Source: Promethearchaeota archaeon (lineage in GTDB: Archaea > Asgardarchaeota > Lokiarchaeia > Sigyniarchaeales > SOKP01). From it: a DNA stretch of 19,358 nucleotides. The position numbers and the translations under genes are program-made. Shown in pieces: positions 4,163 to 16,929 of the stretch; within the stretch, counting starts at the first letter, position 1, and the number at the start of each line of letters is the position of its first letter. Below the pieces are notes generated by a model. The model had not been told where the DNA came from. It saw only the letters and a program-made list of their open reading frames with translations, and made no database searches. Location of the stretch: the NCBI GenBank assembly GCA_008080735.1, contig SHMW01000082.1:1-19358 (forward strand), written 5' to 3'.

Positions 4163-6418
4163 TTATTGATATTGAATTTGTTCAATATCTTTTTTGATTT
4201 CCTCTTTAGTTTGAGCATCGCCTAATCTTTCGTAAATCTCTTGGGCTTCTTTTAATATTTCAATCGCCATTTCACCATCTTGCGTATAACTATAATAAGA
4301 AATAGCCATACTTCTAAGATATTTCGCTTTACTCTCTATATTGTCTTCATCTTTCAAGAGATCAAGTATCATTAAATAACTATTATAAGCTCTCTCGTAA
4401 TCTTGTATAGAATGAGATACAACAGCAATACTATTATACATTTCAATAATGAAATTCTTATCACCAATTCTCTGAGCTACTTCTAAGGAGCGATTAAATA
4501 GTTCTAAAGCATCATCATAATTCCCGAGATTATAAGCGGAAGAACCCATGGAGTTTAGAATGTTGATCTTATTATGAATCATATCTTGTTCCTCGCATAT
4601 TTTAAGAGCGTTTTCCCAATTATTAGTGGCTTCTTCCTCATTATTCAAAAAAGCATATAAATTTCCAATCATATGAAGAAGACTTACTTTACTCTCATAA
4701 TCATTTATCTCTGTTGCCAGATATAGCCCCCTATTAAAAAAATCAAGTGCTTTGTCATAGTCCCCTAATTCTTGATACAACAAACCAATATAATTAAGTC
4801 TTACTGTTTGTTCTGGAAGTGTTCCGAGTAGTATATCTATTTTCAATGCGTCTTCAAAAAATTTCAAAGCCTCCTCATTCTCGCCCGATGCTTTATAAAC
4901 CACTCCAATATTCATTAATGCTTGCGCCTTATGCTGTAAATCTCCTGTTTTATTTACTATACTAATAACCCTTTGATAATAATCTAAAGCTTTATCCTGA
5001 TTTCCCATTTTTCCATAAGTGGCACCAAGATTCAGTAGAGGGACTATACTTCCCTCTAAATCATCATGTATTTCATTAAGTTTTAAGGATTCCAAATAAT
5101 AATTTATAGCATTTTTGAAATCAACATTATTAGAATAGATAATTCCAATATTGTTTAGACAAGATGATTGTCCCTCATAATCATTAAGATTGTTATATAA
5201 TTCTTTTGCTATTTCTAGATTTTCTAATCGTTTATCAAGGGTTAATTCACTTGAAGGGAGGCTGGCGACATTAGTTAGAAATTCTGCTTCTCCTTTTATA
5301 TCATTCATAGATTTAGCCATTTCTAATCCTTTTTGCCATACACGTAGTGCATTTCTCCAATCACTTAGACTATAGTAGAGATATCCAGCAAATTTATATT
5401 GGGTAATTATATCAATATTTTTGTACTCATCCAATGTTTTTATCCATTCATCAAAATCTAGATAATTCATATCATCCTCACTCTTTATTTTTGTAATTTC
5501 GACAGATTGTAGAATTCTTGGCCATAAAAATTCAGATATAAACGTTTTAGTATTCGCCTTGATTAAAGATGTCTCAATATTGTGTGTATTCTTAATATGA
5601 TACAAAAATTTTTCTTGTTTTGAGAGATCTGAATTTTGAACTGAGTTGAAATTATTTATTTCTATATCTTCTGATTCAGGGATATGATCAATCCAAATGA
5701 TTTTCTTATATTGAATGATTTCTTTTAAGAACGGGGTGATATCAAAATCATCACTCCCAGAATAGCCTAATATAACTAAGGCACGATCCTTTATTATTTT
5801 TGAAATTATTGGTTTTTTATATGGTTCAATATTAAAAGTTTCTCCTTCTTCTCGACCCTTTCCCAATGAGGATATGGTAGTAACTAAAGACTCGAAGGTA
5901 TTTTGTTCTGTTATAAGATTTCTCTTTGAACCATGGAGTTTGAAAAGCAAAAATTGTGTAATATTAGTTAAATCATTTATCTGATTAAGATCTAAATATT
6001 GTTTTCTTAAGATTATAGGATTTATTTTTTTCTTTTCTTCTTTGGATAAAAGTTTGACAAGTGCATATTCAATTAAATAATCAAAATTTGTGGTTATTAC
6101 ATGATTTTTATTATTAATAATATTGTGAGCTAAAAAGTAATGTATAATATTTGGTTCCATTTTTGTTTCCAAAAAATCCAAAAATCTAAGAGATTTGTCA
6201 ATGTACTGTTGAATTTGTTCAATAAAAACTTCATATCTTAAAGATTCTTTTTGTAAAATCGAATCTATTTCTTTAACAGGAACACATAATCTTACTAGAG
6301 TTTCTACAAACTTTTTAGCTGAAGGCACTCTACTTGGAGTATCCATAGAAATTCCTGCTCCAACCAAAAATGTAAATTTTTCAGTGGGTTCAATAATTTT
6401 ATCAAAAATAGAATTCAT
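4163..6418 (-). CDS. SIR2-like (SIR2_2) domain fused to a long C-terminal TPR array
   Basis: N-terminal FLVGAGIS, ITTNFDYLIE, FKLHGS and LVILGYSGSDDFD sirtuin-fold motifs. About 400 aa of ~40-aa TPR-like repeats follow (e.g. LNNIGIIY, LLNLGATY, LMNIGVVY, LNYIGLLY). Confidence 0.88.
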   Translation of the reverse strand: MNSIFDKIIEPTEKFTFLVGAGISMDTPSRVPSAKKFVETLVRLCVPVKEIDSILQKESLRYEVFIEQIQQYIDKSLRFLDFLETKMEPNIIHYFLAHNIINNKNHVITTNFDYLIEYALVKLLSKEEKKKINPIILRKQYLDLNQINDLTNITQFLLFKLHGSKRNLITEQNTFESLVTTISSLGKGREEGETFNIEPYKKPIISKIIKDRALVILGYSGSDDFDITPFLKEIIQYKKIIWIDHIPESEDIEINNFNSVQNSDLSKQEKFLYHIKNTHNIETSLIKANTKTFISEFLWPRILQSVEITKIKSEDDMNYLDFDEWIKTLDEYKNIDIITQYKFAGYLYYSLSDWRNALRVWQKGLEMAKSMNDIKGEAEFLTNVASLPSSELTLDKRLENLEIAKELYNNLNDYEGQSSCLNNIGIIYSNNVDFKNAINYYLESLKLNEIHDDLEGSIVPLLNLGATYGKMGNQDKALDYYQRVISIVNKTGDLQHKAQALMNIGVVYKASGENEEALKFFEDALKIDILLGTLPEQTVRLNYIGLLYQELGDYDKALDFFNRGLYLATEINDYESKVSLLHMIGNLYAFLNNEEEATNNWENALKICEEQDMIHNKINILNSMGSSAYNLGNYDDALELFNRSLEVAQRIGDKNFIIEMYNSIAVVSHSIQDYERAYNSYLMILDLLKDEDNIESKAKYLRSMAISYYSYTQDGEMAIEILKEAQEIYERLGDAQTKEEIKKDIEQIQYQ

Positions 6419-8963: not shown

Positions 8964-11036
8964 ATGGATTTTTTCTACGAGATCCTCAAAAATCGCATTG
9001 GCTTTTCACGCGTGGGTCGAATTAATGAGATAGGATCATCAAAACCTGTAAAGACGCCTAATATTGTTATCCCAATTAACAAAACTCTGATGAATAATTT
9101 TGATTTTGTCGATACTTTTGGATGTCATGAAATCTTTATTATTTCTGACGAAATCTATTTAGATGAACAATTTTTAGATGGGATGTTTATAGATTCTGGA
9201 TTTTTTTACTATCATAAAGGAACCGTTCAGCGGTTTACAGAAATATTAGAAAAAAAGAAGGACCTTATCGAAAAGAATAAGGTAGTACCAATCCTACCAT
9301 TTTCAATCCCGACAACCACCGTAAATTTTGAATTTGCGGAAAAAGAATTGGTTTATTACCTAAATAAATTGGATAACATACTTAAAAACCATCCAGCCAT
9401 TAATTTTGGTTTATCCATTCGTTTTTTTGATTATTATGAAGTTTTAGAACGGTATAAAGTATTGATACAAAAGCATAACAACATAAAGTTGCTAAATTTC
9501 CTTGATATTTTTGATAATCTTAGGTTTTTTCGTAATAAATTAGAAGCGATAATAAAATTAAAAGACGAATTAGATAACAATCTTGTTCTAATGGCATCAG
9601 GACGGGTTTTGACGAAATATATCCCTATTATTGTATATCTGGGCTTTGATTTAATCAATAGTTCATATCTCACTCATTTATCCGCAGAAAGCTTTTATGA
9701 TACGATAGATAATCTTATCCCCGCATATAAAGTAAGATATCTTCCGTGTAATTGTTTATCTTGCCAAAATAGACTAAAAGGATTATTGGAAGAAAAATAT
9801 TCTGCGGATAAAATAGATTTATTATGTTATCATAATTTCATTGTTGCTCGCAATTATATGAATAAAACAATTCAATATCTACATACGGAGGATTTCCGAG
9901 CTCTCGTCGAAAAATCATCTTTAAACGAGCTGAATTTTAAATCTTTGTTGAAAATATGCGATAAGAATTATTTTGAACAACTCAAATACCATTCAAAAAT
10001 GATTCAAAAAAATAGGGAAATAACTTGTTTAGGTCCTATATCGTACAATAGACCCGATTTTGAGTATTTCAGAAGAAATGTGTTAAACACTTTTACGCCC
10101 GAACCATGGACGAAACTCATTATCTTATTACCCTGTTCAGCAAAAAAACCCTATTCTCAATCAAGATCTCATCAAAAATTTTATGACATCATTCGGCAAT
10201 TTTCTGAATTTCCTTCTTTTCAAGAAATCATTCTTACTTCCCCTTTGGGGGCTATCCCGCGACAATTAGAAAATATATATCCAGTTAATTCATATGAGAT
10301 ATCAGTAACGGGAGATTGGAATACGGAAGAGATAGAAATCGCTGCGAATATGTTATCTGCTCTATTAAATAAATTTGATAAAGATATTCCTGTAATCTGT
10401 CATCTTGATGGAGGGTATTTAGATATTGCAAAAGAAGCGGAAAAATCTGTTAAGAACCAGTTAATCTTCTCCAACGTGGACGATCATCTCACTTCGGACG
10501 ATGCGCTCAAAAAGTTAGAAAATAATCTACAGAATAATATTTCAGAATTTAAACCCAAAATGAACATTTCTTCAGATAATAAACTTACAAAATCATGGCG
10601 TAGAAAATTTTCAAAAATAATTGATTATCAGTTTGGAATGGGGTTTGGAGAAAAATTAATCTCAGAAAATGTACGATATAAGAGAGATCATAGAAATACT
10701 CGGTTTTATTTGGAAAATAAAAGCAATGGAGACCAACTAGGAACGTTTAAATTTTCCACGGGAAAGATAAGATTATCCATAAAGGGAGCAGAAAGAATTG
10801 CATATCTCCCGGATTTTTCTAATTTTATTATATTTGATGGTACAGTATTAAAAGGAAATACCTTATTTATGCCAGGTATCAAAAATTATGCTCCAAATCT
10901 CTTACCAGATCAAAATGTATGTATATTCGACCAAAAGAAAGAATCCATTATAGCGATGGGAGATATGATTACAAGCTCACGGTTTATTCAAAATTCAACA
11001 TCAGGAAAGGTAGTAAAAATCTATGAAACTAGATGA
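8964..11036 (+). CDS. arcS: Archaeosine synthase subunit alpha (ArcS; TGT-like N-terminus, C-terminal PUA-like domain)
   Basis: TGT-like start (SRVGRI..KTP), Zn motif PCNCLSC...HN, ArcS motif LLPCSAKKPYSQSRSH, LTSPLGAIPR.LE..YP, VTGDW, and a PUA-like end (GNTLFMPGI). Overlaps raSEA by 14 nt. Confidence 0.9.
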   Translation: MDFFYEILKNRIGFSRVGRINEIGSSKPVKTPNIVIPINKTLMNNFDFVDTFGCHEIFIISDEIYLDEQFLDGMFIDSGFFYYHKGTVQRFTEILEKKKDLIEKNKVVPILPFSIPTTTVNFEFAEKELVYYLNKLDNILKNHPAINFGLSIRFFDYYEVLERYKVLIQKHNNIKLLNFLDIFDNLRFFRNKLEAIIKLKDELDNNLVLMASGRVLTKYIPIIVYLGFDLINSSYLTHLSAESFYDTIDNLIPAYKVRYLPCNCLSCQNRLKGLLEEKYSADKIDLLCYHNFIVARNYMNKTIQYLHTEDFRALVEKSSLNELNFKSLLKICDKNYFEQLKYHSKMIQKNREITCLGPISYNRPDFEYFRRNVLNTFTPEPWTKLIILLPCSAKKPYSQSRSHQKFYDIIRQFSEFPSFQEIILTSPLGAIPRQLENIYPVNSYEISVTGDWNTEEIEIAANMLSALLNKFDKDIPVICHLDGGYLDIAKEAEKSVKNQLIFSNVDDHLTSDDALKKLENNLQNNISEFKPKMNISSDNKLTKSWRRKFSKIIDYQFGMGFGEKLISENVRYKRDHRNTRFYLENKSNGDQLGTFKFSTGKIRLSIKGAERIAYLPDFSNFIIFDGTVLKGNTLFMPGIKNYAPNLLPDQNVCIFDQKKESIIAMGDMITSSRFIQNSTSGKVVKIYETR

Positions 11037-12117
11037 AAATAAACAGAAATATGAGTGTTTAGCTGAGGAAATCGAAGGACTGCGAAAACACACCTTAAAG
11101 AATAGAACCCCCTATTCAGATGACAAATTAGGCAAACCCCTGGCATTCTGGACCAAACAAGAACGTCTTTTAGATAAGGTTGGAAAAGAGTTAACTATCA
11201 TTTTAAGGACTAAGGGATGTTATTGGGCCTTGGAACATGGCGGATGTTCGATGTGTGGGTATATCGAAGATGCAAATATTCAAAATGTTCCATCCGAGCA
11301 AATTATTCATCAATTTGATTATGCAGTTCAAAATAAAATCACAGAAATAAGAGAAGATAGCAACGATTATGTACTAAAAATTTTTAATTCGGGGAGCTTT
11401 TTTGATGATTCTGAAATAAATAAACAGACAAGAGAACATATATATAAAAAAGTGGCAGAGATTCCGCAAATCACGGAATTCATCGTGGAATCGAGAATTG
11501 AATTCATTACCGAAGATAACCTTATGGAGATGAAGAAATATCTCCCAGATATATGTATTGAGATTGGAATTGGTTTAGAATCTGTTGATGACCATATTAG
11601 AAATAAATATATCAATAAAGGACTAACATTTGAGGACTTCCTAAGCACTAAGGAACTTTGTGATCTTAATGATGTGGGAATTAAGGCATATCTTCTCTTT
11701 AAACCCCCCTTTCTTAACGAGCAAGCTTCTATCGACGATTGTATACATTCGATAAAAACTTTAATAGATCTAGGCATTGAATCCATTTCCATTAATCCGT
11801 GCAATGTACAAAAGAATTCATTTGTCGAATATTTATGGTATCAAAACCGCTATCGCCCTCCGTGGTATTATTCTTTATTTGAGTGTTTTAAAAAAGCTCT
11901 GAATTCGTCAACGTTACAAAAAACACGTATTTTATGTGATCCTTCGGGAGCCGGCACCAAGAGGGGCATTCACAACTGTTTAAGAAAAGAATGTAATGAA
12001 AAAATGAGAGAAATTTTGTCCCAGTTTATTCTTTCCCAAGACTTAGAAATTTTAAACGAGATCGAGTATGATTGTATTTGTTATTCACGATATAATTTGC
12101 AAAAAGACCATCTATAG
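11023..12117 (+). CDS. raSEA: Archaeosine biosynthesis radical SAM protein RaSEA
   Basis: Atypical Cys motif LRTKGCYWALEHGGCSMCGY, plus FNSGSFFD, VESR.E, IGIGLES, INKG, KAYLLFKPPFL, YRPPW and RGIHNC. Coupled to arcS. Confidence 0.92.
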   Translation: MKLDENKQKYECLAEEIEGLRKHTLKNRTPYSDDKLGKPLAFWTKQERLLDKVGKELTIILRTKGCYWALEHGGCSMCGYIEDANIQNVPSEQIIHQFDYAVQNKITEIREDSNDYVLKIFNSGSFFDDSEINKQTREHIYKKVAEIPQITEFIVESRIEFITEDNLMEMKKYLPDICIEIGIGLESVDDHIRNKYINKGLTFEDFLSTKELCDLNDVGIKAYLLFKPPFLNEQASIDDCIHSIKTLIDLGIESISINPCNVQKNSFVEYLWYQNRYRPPWYYSLFECFKKALNSSTLQKTRILCDPSGAGTKRGIHNCLRKECNEKMREILSQFILSQDLEILNEIEYDCICYSRYNLQKDHL

Positions 12118-12353: not shown

Positions 12354-12602
12354 ATGAATTGGTACAAATTAAACTTATTTCACTTGGGATTTTCTGCAAA
12401 AAACCACGCCATTTTCCGGGCAACCAAATGGAATAAAAAGCTTGAAGCTATAATTAAAAAACCAATCTTTAATGAAGAATATGAGAAGATCGGATTTATT
12501 CTCGATATCTTCGGTCCACACTCAAATCCCTTTATTTCAATCAAACCTGAACCCAATATAGAAATTGGGAAAAATAATAAGTTTTATGTTAAGGTAGCTT
12601 GA
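12354..12602 (+). CDS. gar1: H/ACA RNP subunit Gar1/Naf1 family protein
   Basis: Motif IGFILDIFGPHSNPFISIKP matches the Gar1 consensus (IG.V.DIFGPV..PY..VKP). It sits immediately upstream of tfb, a common archaeal arrangement. Confidence 0.82.
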   Translation: MNWYKLNLFHLGFSAKNHAIFRATKWNKKLEAIIKKPIFNEEYEKIGFILDIFGPHSNPFISIKPEPNIEIGKNNKFYVKVA

Positions 12603-12659
12603 TGGTTTTTAGATTCTTATAGGTTAGTTAATGTATTTTTTTAAAAAAAGGTGTGTTCG

Positions 12660-13601
12660 GTGGAAAGAATAAAACAAAAAGCTTCATCAGAAAATCTCAT
12701 CATTGAGAAAAATACCTGTACTGAATGTGGAGAGAATATCTTTTTTGATGAGAATAGAGGTTTATTAGTATGTGAGAGCTGCGGGTTGGTTCATTCAGAA
12801 AATTATATCGATAGAGGGCCAGAATGGAGAGCCTTTGATGCGGATCAGAGGAAAAAGCGGACGCGAACGGGTGCTCCGATGACATATATGATCCACGACA
12901 AGGGATTGTCCACGATGATCGATTGGAAGAATAAGGATTTCTATGGAAGGGAAATTCCTGCAAAATTACGTGGACAGATTTATCGCCTACGTAAATGGCA
13001 GAGTCGAATCCGGGTTAGCGATGCAACAGAACGGAATTTAACCTTTGCCTTGAGCGAACTTGATCGAATGGCCTCAAATTTGGATTTACCAAAAAATTTA
13101 AGAGAATGTTCTGCGAAAATTTATCGTGATGCTGTGGAAAAACATCTCATTCGAGGAAGAAGTATCGAAGGAGTAGCGGCGGCAAGTTTGTACGCGGCAT
13201 GTCGGATGTATAAGGTTCCCAGAACATTAAATGAAATTGCTGACATTGCCAGAGTGGATAAAAAAGAAATAGGGCGTTCTTTTCGCTTCATCTCTAATGA
13301 GCTTCATATGAATTTAAATCCCACTATCGCCTCAGACTTCTTAACTCGTTTTATCTCAGAATTGGGATTATCCACAAAATGCCAGAAGATCGCTAAGAAG
13401 ATTATTAAAATGGCACAAGATCGCGGATTAACTTCAGGTCGCGGCCCAACTGGGGTATGTGCAGCAGCTATTTATGCCTCTACTCTTATTACAAAAGAGA
13501 AGAGGACCCAAAGAAAGATTGCCCGTATTTCACAGGTGACGGAAGTCACGGTACGGAATAGATTCTCCGAATTAGTGGAGTATCTGAATTTAAACCTCTA
13601 A
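12660..13601 (+). CDS. tfb: Transcription initiation factor IIB (TFB)
   Basis: Zn ribbon CTEC...CESCG, B-reader DRGPEWRAF, HDKGLST, RLRKWQ, and two cyclin folds (IRGRS, SGRGP, VTEVTVRNR). GTG at 12660 follows SD-like AAGGTG; 12651 is the alternative start. Confidence 0.97.
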   Translation: MERIKQKASSENLIIEKNTCTECGENIFFDENRGLLVCESCGLVHSENYIDRGPEWRAFDADQRKKRTRTGAPMTYMIHDKGLSTMIDWKNKDFYGREIPAKLRGQIYRLRKWQSRIRVSDATERNLTFALSELDRMASNLDLPKNLRECSAKIYRDAVEKHLIRGRSIEGVAAASLYAACRMYKVPRTLNEIADIARVDKKEIGRSFRFISNELHMNLNPTIASDFLTRFISELGLSTKCQKIAKKIIKMAQDRGLTSGRGPTGVCAAAIYASTLITKEKRTQRKIARISQVTEVTVRNRFSELVEYLNLNL

Positions 13602-14363: not shown

Positions 14364-14831
14364 ATGAATTATTCTGAAGATGAACGGATGTTAAAAAAGA
14401 TCCTAAATGCTATTATTAATAGCACCGCGGGATTAAGATATGCCATCATTATTGATGACACCGGTATTACGATTATGAGTCAATCCAAGTTTAAGCTGGC
14501 GGATGATGAGATTTCAGTGGAAAAAATTGGTGCTATTGGGGGTGCGGTATTTATGGCTGGAGAGGAACAGGGGCAGATTCTTAATTACGGAAAGATTGAC
14601 CTTCAAATCACCGAATATGGAAAAGGAATGTTATTTTCGATGAAAGTTGGAAAAGGAGTACTCTGTTTAGCATCTGATAAAAATGTTAATATCGGCTTTG
14701 TTAGAGCGGTGATGAAAAAATGGGCCCCTAAATTAGGAAAAATATTAGATCGCTACCTTGAAAGTGACCAAGACGCAATAAATGAAGAATTAAAAGAACT
14801 CTTCAATTCAGATACAATAAGCATGCTTTGA
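14364..14831 (+). CDS. Roadblock/LC7 (LAMTOR2/MglB-like) domain protein
   Basis: GLRYAIIIDDTGITI, helix IGAIGGAVF, LQITEYGKG.LF and NIGFVR together span the full roadblock fold pattern. Confidence 0.82.
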   Translation: MNYSEDERMLKKILNAIINSTAGLRYAIIIDDTGITIMSQSKFKLADDEISVEKIGAIGGAVFMAGEEQGQILNYGKIDLQITEYGKGMLFSMKVGKGVLCLASDKNVNIGFVRAVMKKWAPKLGKILDRYLESDQDAINEELKELFNSDTISML

Positions 14832-14951: not shown

Positions 14952-15623
14952 ATGAAAGTGATTATGTCCTGGAGCGGAGGAAAGGACTCTGTCATAGCAT
15001 TATATAATGTCCTAAAAAACGATGAGCTTGAAGTATCTTCCCTTCTAACAACTATTACAGAAGCATATGAAAGAATCAGTATGCATGGAGTGCGAAAGGA
15101 ATTGCTGGAAGCGCAGTCGAAAGCGTTAGATCTTCCTCTTGAGTTAGTGTATATTCCAACCGAGTGTTCCAATGAAATATATAAACGGATTATGGAAAAG
15201 CGAATGATGGAGCTGAAAGCGCAGGGAATTAAGGGCGTGGTTTTTGGAGATATTTTTTTAGAGGATATAAGAAAATATCGAGAGGAAAATCTCTCTCAAG
15301 TTGGGATGGAAGCTATCTTTCCCTTATGGGGGATTTCCACGAGGGGGTTAGCTCATACATTTATAGGTTTAGGTTTTAAAGCCGTTATAACGTGTGTTGA
15401 TTCAGAATTTCTTGATAAATCGTTCGTTGGGAGACAATATAGTCGTAAATTTTTATCAGATTTACCAGAAATGGCTGATCCTTGCGGAGAAAACGGAGAG
15501 TTTCATTCATTTGTGTATGATGGTCCCATCTTTAAGAAACCTATCTCCTTTAAATCTGGAAAAGTTGAATTTAGAGAGAATAGATTTTATTTTCAAGATT
15601 TATTGCTCAAGCAAAGCTTGTAG
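14952..15623 (+). CDS. Diphthine-ammonia ligase family (Dph6/DUF71) PP-loop ATP pyrophosphatase
   Basis: Motifs SWSGGKDS, MHGVR, VFGDIFLEDIR, FPLWG and DPCGENGEFHSFVYDGP. Confidence 0.88.
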   Translation: MKVIMSWSGGKDSVIALYNVLKNDELEVSSLLTTITEAYERISMHGVRKELLEAQSKALDLPLELVYIPTECSNEIYKRIMEKRMMELKAQGIKGVVFGDIFLEDIRKYREENLSQVGMEAIFPLWGISTRGLAHTFIGLGFKAVITCVDSEFLDKSFVGRQYSRKFLSDLPEMADPCGENGEFHSFVYDGPIFKKPISFKSGKVEFRENRFYFQDLLLKQSL

Positions 15624-15677: not shown

Positions 15678-15960
15678 ATATGTCGCCTAAAACACTAACA
15701 CATTTTTCTCATCTTAGGGGAGGTTTGTCCCATAACATCAAAAATGTTCTCTCGTGTTAGGCATTTGGGTTGGGACATAATCATGTATCCTGTCTGGGTA
15801 ACTGACTCACACCTCATCGCATTGGTATTCACCATAGCTAGGTAAAGAGCCCATTTTGGCCAGGATTGGTAGATTTACTGATTACTAAACTCGGGATGTC
15901 TGCTCGTTTTTGCACATATACTCATCTGTTTGTCATATATGCCCTCGACTAAGCATGTAT
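15678..15960 (-). ncRNA. Predicted three-hairpin box H/ACA pseudouridylation guide RNA
   Basis: On the minus strand, three stem-pocket-stem hairpins (15955-15901, 15866-15787, 15763-15684) each end at an ACA (15899-97, 15786-84, 15683-81) and each carries a GAUGA K-turn/K-loop motif. The hairpin 1 pocket is complementary to conserved 23S rRNA UUUGC-UA-CCUCGAU, 14 nt from ACA. The region is GC-richer than its flanks and has no credible ORF. Confidence 0.78.
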
Positions 15961-16113
15961 TCCTTCAGCGTTTTCCCATTTAAGATATATTATTCCGGGA
16001 TTAAAAATTTAATTCTAATTTTGTAAAAATGGACTTTTTTTGTATTTAGAATGAATTTTTAGGGGCATTGGGCGATCGATAGGTAAAAATTTTAATGCGT
16101 TTAAAATAATATA

Positions 16114-16929
16114 ATGATAATGAATATTCCAGATGATTGGTTTGAGATAAAGAAGGAAGAGGATCATATAATAGCGATTCAAGAGAGGCTTGAGAAAGTC
16201 GATCCTCGCTTCTATACCCACAACACGAATATATTCCTTCTTCTCGGGGAGTCCAAAGCATTATTAATTGATACAGGTAGTGGGGTAGTGCCTCTCAAGC
16301 CCGTTGTAAAAGAATTTATTGATACTCGAGATTTGCTTGTGATAAATACTCACGGTCACTGGGATCATATAGGAAACAATCATGAGTTTGAGAGAGTTTA
16401 TATCCACAAAAATGAAGCGGGCTTTATTAAAAACCCTGTTAATATTTCCAATCTTAGGGATTCTCCGGAAGAGATAGCAAAGAATTATGAGCCCATGGAC
16501 TATATACTCAGTCCTTCCGCTAAAGTTGTTAAAGTTGAGGAAGGGGATGAATTTGATTTAGGCAATCTCGCTGTAGAAGTGCTTCATACTCCTGGGCACT
16601 CACCGGGGTCTATTTCAATTCTAACTCACAGAGGGGAGTTGTTTCCCGGAGATTTGATGCATTATGGTTCCGTATTCCTTCCGAAAAAAAAGCTTTTGAA
16701 TACAGTACTTACAAGCTTAGATCATATTCTCCAATTATTCGATGATGGAAAAGTGAAGAGTCTATATCCTGCTCATGGCAGTTTTCCCCATGGGAGAGAG
16801 CTCGTGGAAAAGCTTATTAAAGGAATTAATAACATAGATAATCTATGGGAGCAAAAAGAGAAAGATCAATTTCTTCGATCGTGGGTCATTGATGATGGAA
16901 CTTTTAAGTATGTGATTTCAAGATTTTGA
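16114..16929 (+). CDS. Metallo-beta-lactamase fold hydrolase (glyoxalase II-like)
   Basis: Motifs LLIDTG, THGHWDHIG (HxHxDH), HTPGHSPGS, LFPGD and YPAHG. Confidence 0.92.
   Translation: MIMNIPDDWFEIKKEEDHIIAIQERLEKVDPRFYTHNTNIFLLLGESKALLIDTGSGVVPLKPVVKEFIDTRDLLVINTHGHWDHIGNNHEFERVYIHKNEAGFIKNPVNISNLRDSPEEIAKNYEPMDYILSPSAKVVKVEEGDEFDLGNLAVEVLHTPGHSPGSISILTHRGELFPGDLMHYGSVFLPKKKLLNTVLTSLDHILQLFDDGKVKSLYPAHGSFPHGRELVEKLIKGINNIDNLWEQKEKDQFLRSWVIDDGTFKYVISRF

Follow-up and report, generated by a model that had tools for sequence, protein, structure and literature searches.

The window analysed here is a 19,358-nucleotide stretch from a Promethearchaeota archaeon (assembly GCA_008080735.1, contig SHMW01000082.1). 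Between a Dph6-like gene and a gene for a metallo-beta-lactamase-fold protein lies an unannotated intergenic segment, the minus strand of which is predicted to encode a box H/ACA guide RNA with three hairpins, termed HP1, HP2 and HP3 (Table 1). A coding reading of this locus was ruled out, as no open reading frame of at least 80 amino acids was found there, and Rfam scans of the window returned no match at this position. A profile search detected one copy of the RNA in the host genome (G000). The RNA was present in 33 of the 36 genomes of the host's family, and the copy from the same genus was identical to that in a metagenome-assembled genome (MAG) labelled Promethearchaeia, which places the host among Asgard archaea of the class Lokiarchaeia. 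Homologues carry a T/A run at the position of the TATA-like box found upstream of the RNA in the window, and this box is, as judged from sequence, a putative promoter element for the guide RNA.

Table 1. Features of the guide RNA locus, in window positions
Feature	Positions	Strand	Remarks
Three-hairpin box H/ACA guide RNA (predicted)	15681..15977	-	approximately 300 nt; ends inferred from conservation
HP1, H/ACA motif	15897..15955	-	predicted guide for pseudouridine at 23S U2496 (E. coli numbering)
HP1 lower stem	15955-15951/15905-15901	-	5 bp
HP1 5′ guide strand	15943..15950	-	pairs with 23S 2498-2504 (7 bp, one G.U); core CGAGG invariant
HP1 3′ guide strand	15906..15913	-	bases 1-4 pair with 23S 2495-2492; fifth base (A) opposite C2491
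HP1 upper stem and K-loop	15914..15942	-	stem 15942-15935/15921-15914, 8 bp; predicted L7Ae site
HP1 ACA box	15897..15899	-	exactly 14 nt from first 3′ pocket base
Basal K-turn, 5′ strand	15961..15971	-	2-bp stem, 3-nt bulge ending in U, GA, then 3 bp
Basal K-turn, 3′ strand	15889..15896	-	immediately 3′ of HP1 ACA
Scaffold helices	15772..15885	-	15885-15880/15782-15777 closes HP2; 15977-15974/15775-15772 closes HP1 and HP2
HP2, H/ACA motif	15784..15866	-	ACA 15786-15784; guide cores 15854-15848 and 15799-15794
HP3, H/ACA motif	15681..15762	-	ACA 15683-15681; guide cores 15753-15749 and 15699-15694
TATA-like box	16000..16006	-	approximately 23 nt upstream of conserved 5′ GGG
Dph6-like (diphthamide-synthase-domain) gene	14952-15623	+	flanks guide RNA
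Metallo-beta-lactamase-fold gene	16114-16929	+	flanks guide RNA
gar1 (H/ACA RNP protein)	12354..12602	+	3 kb from guide RNA, just upstream of TFB

Several other genes of the window were recorded. The gar1-TFB pair (12354-13601) is preceded by the archaeosine genes arcS-like (8964-11036) and RaSEA (11023-12117), and arcS-like, RaSEA and gar1 make up an RNA-modification gene cluster close to the guide RNA. A Roadblock-like gene (14364-14831, plus strand) adjoined the guide RNA in 27 of 30 family loci and was convergent with it in 25 of the 30; in the window, the Dph6-like gene intervenes between the two. The regions 335-2731 and 4163-6418 hold the Type III-A CRISPR genes csm4 and csm5 and a gene converging on them, which has a weak sirtuin-like N-terminus and TPR repeats.

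HP1 displayed the build of an archaeal box H/ACA motif, with a lower stem, an internal-loop pocket, an upper stem, and an apical K-loop bearing conserved tandem GA motifs (G.A pairs at 15934-15933 and 15923-15922). The ACA box lies 14 to 15 nt from the pocket, as in archaeal box H/ACA RNAs; this distance was 14 nt in 27 of the 29 family copies and 15 nt in the other two. A preliminary description of this DNA had proposed a box H/ACA hairpin on the minus strand at 15955-15897, and its pocket strands, K-loop and 14-nt ACA spacing were all confirmed, with stems that covary. When 28 family homologues were compared with a 40-pair structure, 93% of cells were paired and two-sided changes were observed at 20 of the 40 pairs; none of 500 shuffles reached the observed value, and slid controls paired at 24-40%. 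Within the HP1 upper stem, 5 of 8 pairs showed compensatory change. Variation across the same homologues was concentrated in the stems, the ACA boxes, guide cores and GA motifs being almost invariant. Genes for the proteins of an archaeal box H/ACA system, Cbf5, Nop10, Gar1 and the L7Ae family, are all present in the host genome.

The second and third hairpins are also H/ACA motifs. The 3′ core of HP2 pairs with 23S 2579-2584 and its 5′ core pairs imperfectly with the bases following 2587. Because this match is imperfect, and U2586 is not the top rRNA site for HP2 in the host's family, the target call rests on homology; by analogy with related guides, we lean towards 23S U2586 as the HP2 target. 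HP3 folds with a z of -3.5, and its cores suit the helix 69 loop, either at U1917 alone, through 4+5 bp with an extra unpaired base, or, given a 16-nt ACA distance, at U1915 and U1917 together in the manner of stem-loop SL2 of Haloferax sR-h45. This loop, at U1915 and/or U1917, is the likely target of HP3. One Asgard homologue (L240; G165:C13, 54358 onward) seemingly has HP1 and HP3 without HP2, and another (L106) seemingly has HP1 alone, so that motifs can apparently be lost or split one by one.

The hairpins are held in a nested scaffold of closing helices. HP1 is closed by a basal K-turn, which was found in 29 of 30 family loci and is flanked on both sides by stems that covary. Most of the other Asgard groups sampled, and a hadarchaeon, share this K-turn; it was missing or substituted by a plain helix in some Asgard groups, and no basal K-turn was seen in the Methanosarcinales-side homologues. 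The two scaffold helices were paired in 97% and 83% of cells, with little two-sided change, and HP3 is likewise closed by a short helix in most relatives. The basal K-turn may provide an extra L7Ae site, protect the end of the RNA, or keep its three domains folded apart. No published description of such a nested scaffold with a basal K-turn was found in a literature search of incomplete coverage.

Genome-wide searches with the HP1 pattern revealed well-formed hairpins in many Lokiarchaeia, as well as in MAGs labelled Thor-, Heimdall- and Hadarchaeota and Methanosarcinales/ANME-2. Matches in bacteria lacked the upper stem and were rejected as chance, except for one on a probably mis-binned contig; this contig, labelled Nanopelagicaceae (L127), bears a guide RNA nearly identical to a Lokiarchaeia one. 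With a covariance model of HP1, matches were found in 68 of 150 Asgard genomes, from 13 families, and in 4 of 141 genomes of the phylum of a Methanosarcinales MAG, and most of these matches ran on into the same second and third hairpins. Three methods detected no homologue in five genomes of a sister family of the same order (G044, G050, G055, G042 and G037, three of them single-contig); Cbf5 was present in the four of these genomes that were tested, and the same 23S target was present in the three that were matched. The guide RNA may have been lost or have diverged strongly in this family, non-detection being no proof of loss. Guide RNAs of relatives were recovered from four metatranscriptomes as contigs of 156-341 nt with a depth of up to approximately 630, for which neither strand nor ends are given; such short, deep contigs fit a discrete, abundant RNA and lend this weak support. 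No paper on Asgard H/ACA guides was found, in a search whose coverage was incomplete.

Because no assembled rRNA was detected in the host genome by Rfam models or motif search, the target of HP1 was tested on the 23S rRNA of relatives. All 16 family copies, two of them from the same genus, read G-G-C-U-U-G-C-[U-U]-CCUCGAUG. On this sequence HP1 shows the bipartite pairing around an unpaired UN of an archaeal box H/ACA guide, with 4 bp formed by the 3′ guide (-2.8 kcal/mol, computed), 7 bp, one of them G.U, formed by the 5′ guide (-9.9 kcal/mol), and U-U left unpaired. Among 1056 U positions of one 23S and 16S rRNA, this site ranked first, with a score of 27 compared with 16 for the runner-up. 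Only 2 of 1000 shuffled pockets reached the score of HP1 at its target, and pairing of at least 4+5 bp was retained there by 28 of 29 homologues. The target U aligns with C2496 of E. coli, the aligned strain being numbered +1 in domain V. Most other Asgard 23S share the family's target sequence, with C at 2491 and U at 2497, and the archaeal-type Asgard 23S matched outside the family have the target U in all cases and C at 2491 in all but one. The U2497 register gave HP1 only 1+2 bp, and a widened HP1 pocket was considered and rejected. In Haloferax, the 5′-most of the unpaired Us is the one modified (PMC7075261).

These results bear on the target named in the preliminary description, the U equivalent to E. 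coli C2496 and yeast U2865. This site was by far the best in the 23S of relatives, and the assignment is very likely right: both the U and the flanking complementarity were found. The target sequence assumed there, UUUGC-U-A, was incorrect at 2491 and 2497, where family 23S reads CUUGC-U-U. Of the proposed 5+7 bp around an unpaired U-A, the 7-bp 5′ side held, whereas the 3′ side has 4 bp and U-U is left unpaired.

Additional features of these 23S rRNAs were noted. At position 2497 the majority of Asgard families carry U, several others, like the hadarchaeon and E. coli, carry A, and one carries C. The family 23S loci (L036-L044) contain insertions, probably introns, in several genes, which sit in the loops of helices 89 and 91 and past the 2602 loop, certain of them lying approximately 20 nt upstream of the HP1 target. 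Two Asgard MAGs (G276 and G304) contain bacterial-type 23S, probably through mis-binning. In 27 of 29 family copies, the HP1 3′ guide has A as its fifth base (window 15909, minus strand) despite facing C2491; the conservation of this A might reflect an A.C wobble, stacking or a second target.

The site has known counterparts in other archaea and in eukaryotes. The sites of the Pyrococcus guide Pab35 (2549, 2672 and 2697) are the RluE, RluC and RluB positions, which we take to be E. coli 2457, 2580 and 2605, and since these give a constant offset of 92, P. abyssi 2588 and 2678 would equal E. coli 2496 and 2586. In a register test of the P. abyssi sites, the offset of 92 tied with five others for best, at 6/8. 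The spacing of P. abyssi 2549-2588-2603 is that of yeast 2826-2865-2880. Taken together, the offsets and the HgcG consensus indicate that P. abyssi Psi2588 probably lies at E. coli 2496. Psi2588 was mapped in P. abyssi 23S and was made in vitro by motif 1 of Pab40 (Muller et al. 2008, PMC2377435), and it was counted even then among the sites highly conserved in eukaryotes (PMC2377435). The same site in T. kodakarensis, Psi2592, was mapped in vivo and was lost in cbf5, nop10 and gar1 knock-outs (PMC6138745). Pab40, Pf7, Pho40 and Afu4 each have three motifs, of which motif 2 is expected to act at 2678 (Pf7/Afu4) and motif 3 in helix 69 (PMC2377435). Yeast U2875 corresponds to E. coli U2506 (PMC3919601), and the resulting offset of 369 places yeast 2865 at E. 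coli 2496. Psi2865 of yeast is guided by snR46 (PMC5699541), and its human counterpart, 4412, by ACA16 (PMC3542256).

The relation of the window RNA to this archaeal guide, represented in Rfam by HgcG (RF00064), was traced through its homologues. The window RNA had no HgcG match, and several homologues matched HgcG in a locus scan, with E values of 3.5e-10 to 0.01. The best genome-wide HgcG matches in two single-contig Asgard genomes (G089 and G066) had E values of 9e-13 and 9e-11, and the same RNAs were recovered by a profile based solely on the window's family (8e-11 and 2e-5, respectively). Sequence homology between the window RNA and HgcG was detectable only via these intermediates. The gathering cut-off of RF00064 is 77 bits, a value reached neither by the window RNA nor by the Asgard homologues, which score 18-50 bits. 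The spacing of HgcG motif 1 is that of HP1: CGAGG, 7 nt, K-loop, 8 nt, GC-R-A, 10 nt and ACA. HgcG motifs 2 and 3 hold guide cores for 2586 and helix 69 that match those of HP2 and HP3, and the order of three motifs with targets 2496, 2586 and helix 69 is the same in the window RNA, HP2 being assigned by homology. A metagenome scan for the Thermococcales-type motif 1 returned three matches, all by chance. Given scores short of the cut-off and the absence of any match to the window RNA itself, the RNA was classed as a divergent homologue rather than a formal member of HgcG.

Collectively, these data argue strongly that the window RNA is a stand-alone archaeal box H/ACA guide of three motifs, HP1 being the first, and that it represents a divergent homologue of Pab40/Pf7/Afu4 (HgcG) in the Lokiarchaeia (Promethearchaeia). 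HP1 very probably directs pseudouridylation of 23S U2496, a uridine close to the catalytic centre of the ribosome, with U2586 and helix 69 as the probable sites of HP2 and HP3. The structure and conservation of the RNA, its complementarity to 23S in relatives, the protein genes and the chain of homology all support this explanation. In the predicted mechanism, L7Ae would bind the apical K-loop of HP1, and Cbf5-Nop10-Gar1 would dock at the lower stem and ACA. At the 3′ end of helix 89, the pocket would grip 23S through 4 bp on the upstream side and 7 bp on the downstream side of the unpaired U-U, of which Cbf5 would isomerise the first base (2496 in E. coli numbering, 2865 in yeast and 2588 in P. 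abyssi). For HP2 and HP3, the probable substrates would be U2586 and the loop of helix 69.

HP1 could also be the direct ancestor or a true orthologue of eukaryotic snR46/ACA16, and so mark a special link between Asgard archaea and eukaryotes. In most Asgard 23S, the base at 2497 is U instead of A, as we take it to be in yeast, and an RNA that occurs in 13 sampled Asgard families could have been present in the eukaryotic ancestor. The target position of HP1 is that of snR46/ACA16, and the site is snoRNA-guided in yeast, human, Plasmodium and Entamoeba (PMC3542256). However, a common target is no proof of common descent. Eukaryotic H/ACA RNAs are not known to have a K-loop, and no match to an snR46 or SNORA16 model was found in any Rfam scan. 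Further, the guide is also present in the hadarchaeon, in Methanosarcinales and in Thermococcales, and hence is not Asgard-specific. We therefore consider such orthology doubtful. The earlier suggestion of a functional orthologue of snR46 stands in the sense of a functional equivalent acting at a shared site, but a special Asgard-eukaryote tie is not supported, given guiding of this site in Thermococcales and guides in the hadarchaeon and Methanosarcinales; apart from the target, nothing was seen that connects HP1 with snR46.

The host assembly yielded no 23S and the window RNA no HgcG match, and both count against the favoured explanation, as does the HP1 3′ duplex, which has only 4 bp. Muller et al. 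held the 3′ duplex to be the more important one (PMC2377435), and Toffano-Nioche et al. found the 5′ duplex to be discriminant and a 1-bp 3′ duplex to be active in Pyrococcus. HP1 might then act as a chaperone for folding of the pre-23S peptidyl-transferase loop, or be kept though inefficient at U2496, as the A conserved opposite C2491 and the 3′ duplex of down to 4 bp would allow; the five sister-family genomes, in which Cbf5 and the target persist without a detected homologue, likewise suggest that the guide may be dispensable. We regard this as quite improbable, since strict conservation extends to the ACA spacing of 14 nt, the K-loop and the two guide cores, as catalysis requires, and short 3′ duplexes work in Pyrococcus.

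The main target of HP1 could be another RNA (a tRNA, another rRNA site or U2497), with 2496 secondary. Archaeal motifs are able to guide several sites, and the conserved fifth A would fit a U in such a target; yet no other 16S or 23S position exceeds a score of 16, and the poor pairing in the U2497 register speaks against that neighbour, making this reading very unlikely. A composite C/D and H/ACA guide that also directs ribose methylation is the most improbable proposal: the conserved K-turn is indeed formed by a UGA motif on the 5′ side of HP1 and a C-N-GA motif past its ACA, but boxes C and D are degenerate, the C′/D′ pair is absent, and the sequence leading up to the D-like box is the covarying lower stem and ACA of HP1 itself, with no free antisense element, so that the RNA is not a methylation guide.

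Guiding at U2496 is thus an ancient job shared with Pyrococcus and yeast rather than an Asgard speciality, with modification in the host predicted. The modification site and mechanism are already known; what is new is the wide unannotated range of the guide, together with a nested scaffold whose extra basal K-turn is absent from the HgcG consensus. A guide that has been studied experimentally, and was known from Thermococcales and Archaeoglobus, is extended to much of the Asgard phylum and to other archaea missed by Rfam. This wider range lends support to the proposal of 2008 that guided pseudouridylation at 2496 and in helix 69 predates eukaryotes, and the predicted sites form a concrete first target list for mapping of Asgard rRNA modifications. 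The scaffold with its basal K-turn adds a structural element that can be tested. A bolder proposal, which we rate as improbable, is that Asgard and hadarchaeal Pab40-type RNAs constitute a distinct, undescribed architecture, in which hairpins hang from helices closing just after each ACA and an extra L7Ae-binding K-turn sits at the base of HP1; this scaffold would have been present in the archaeal ancestor of eukaryotes and later split into the separate snoRNAs (snR46/ACA16 and snR191/U19) serving those sites.

Compared with yeast snR46 and human ACA16, HP1 is predicted to act at the same large-subunit position and through the same chemistry of a Cbf5-type RNP; the eukaryotic form is a two-hairpin snoRNA, and no sequence similarity was detected. 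The resemblance to Pab40, Pf7, Pho40, Tko1 and Afu4 extends to motif order, the geometry and guide cores of motif 1, and the target sites. The window RNA differs from HgcG in being AT-rich and without a model score, and its hairpins are set in a nested scaffold with a basal K-turn, whereas those of the HgcG consensus are directly linked. It also differs from Pab40/HgcG in its 4-bp 3′ duplex and its unpaired U-U. The Haloferax volcanii guide sR-h45 (PMC7075261) has a long linker and lacks an HP1 counterpart, but has two stem-loops that correspond to HP2 and HP3 in both their order and the type of target. Its targets are Psi2605 and, in helix 69, Psi1940/1942, the latter involving a longer ACA distance and a UNUN left unpaired (PMC7075261); the 16-nt spacing of HP3 is similarly long.
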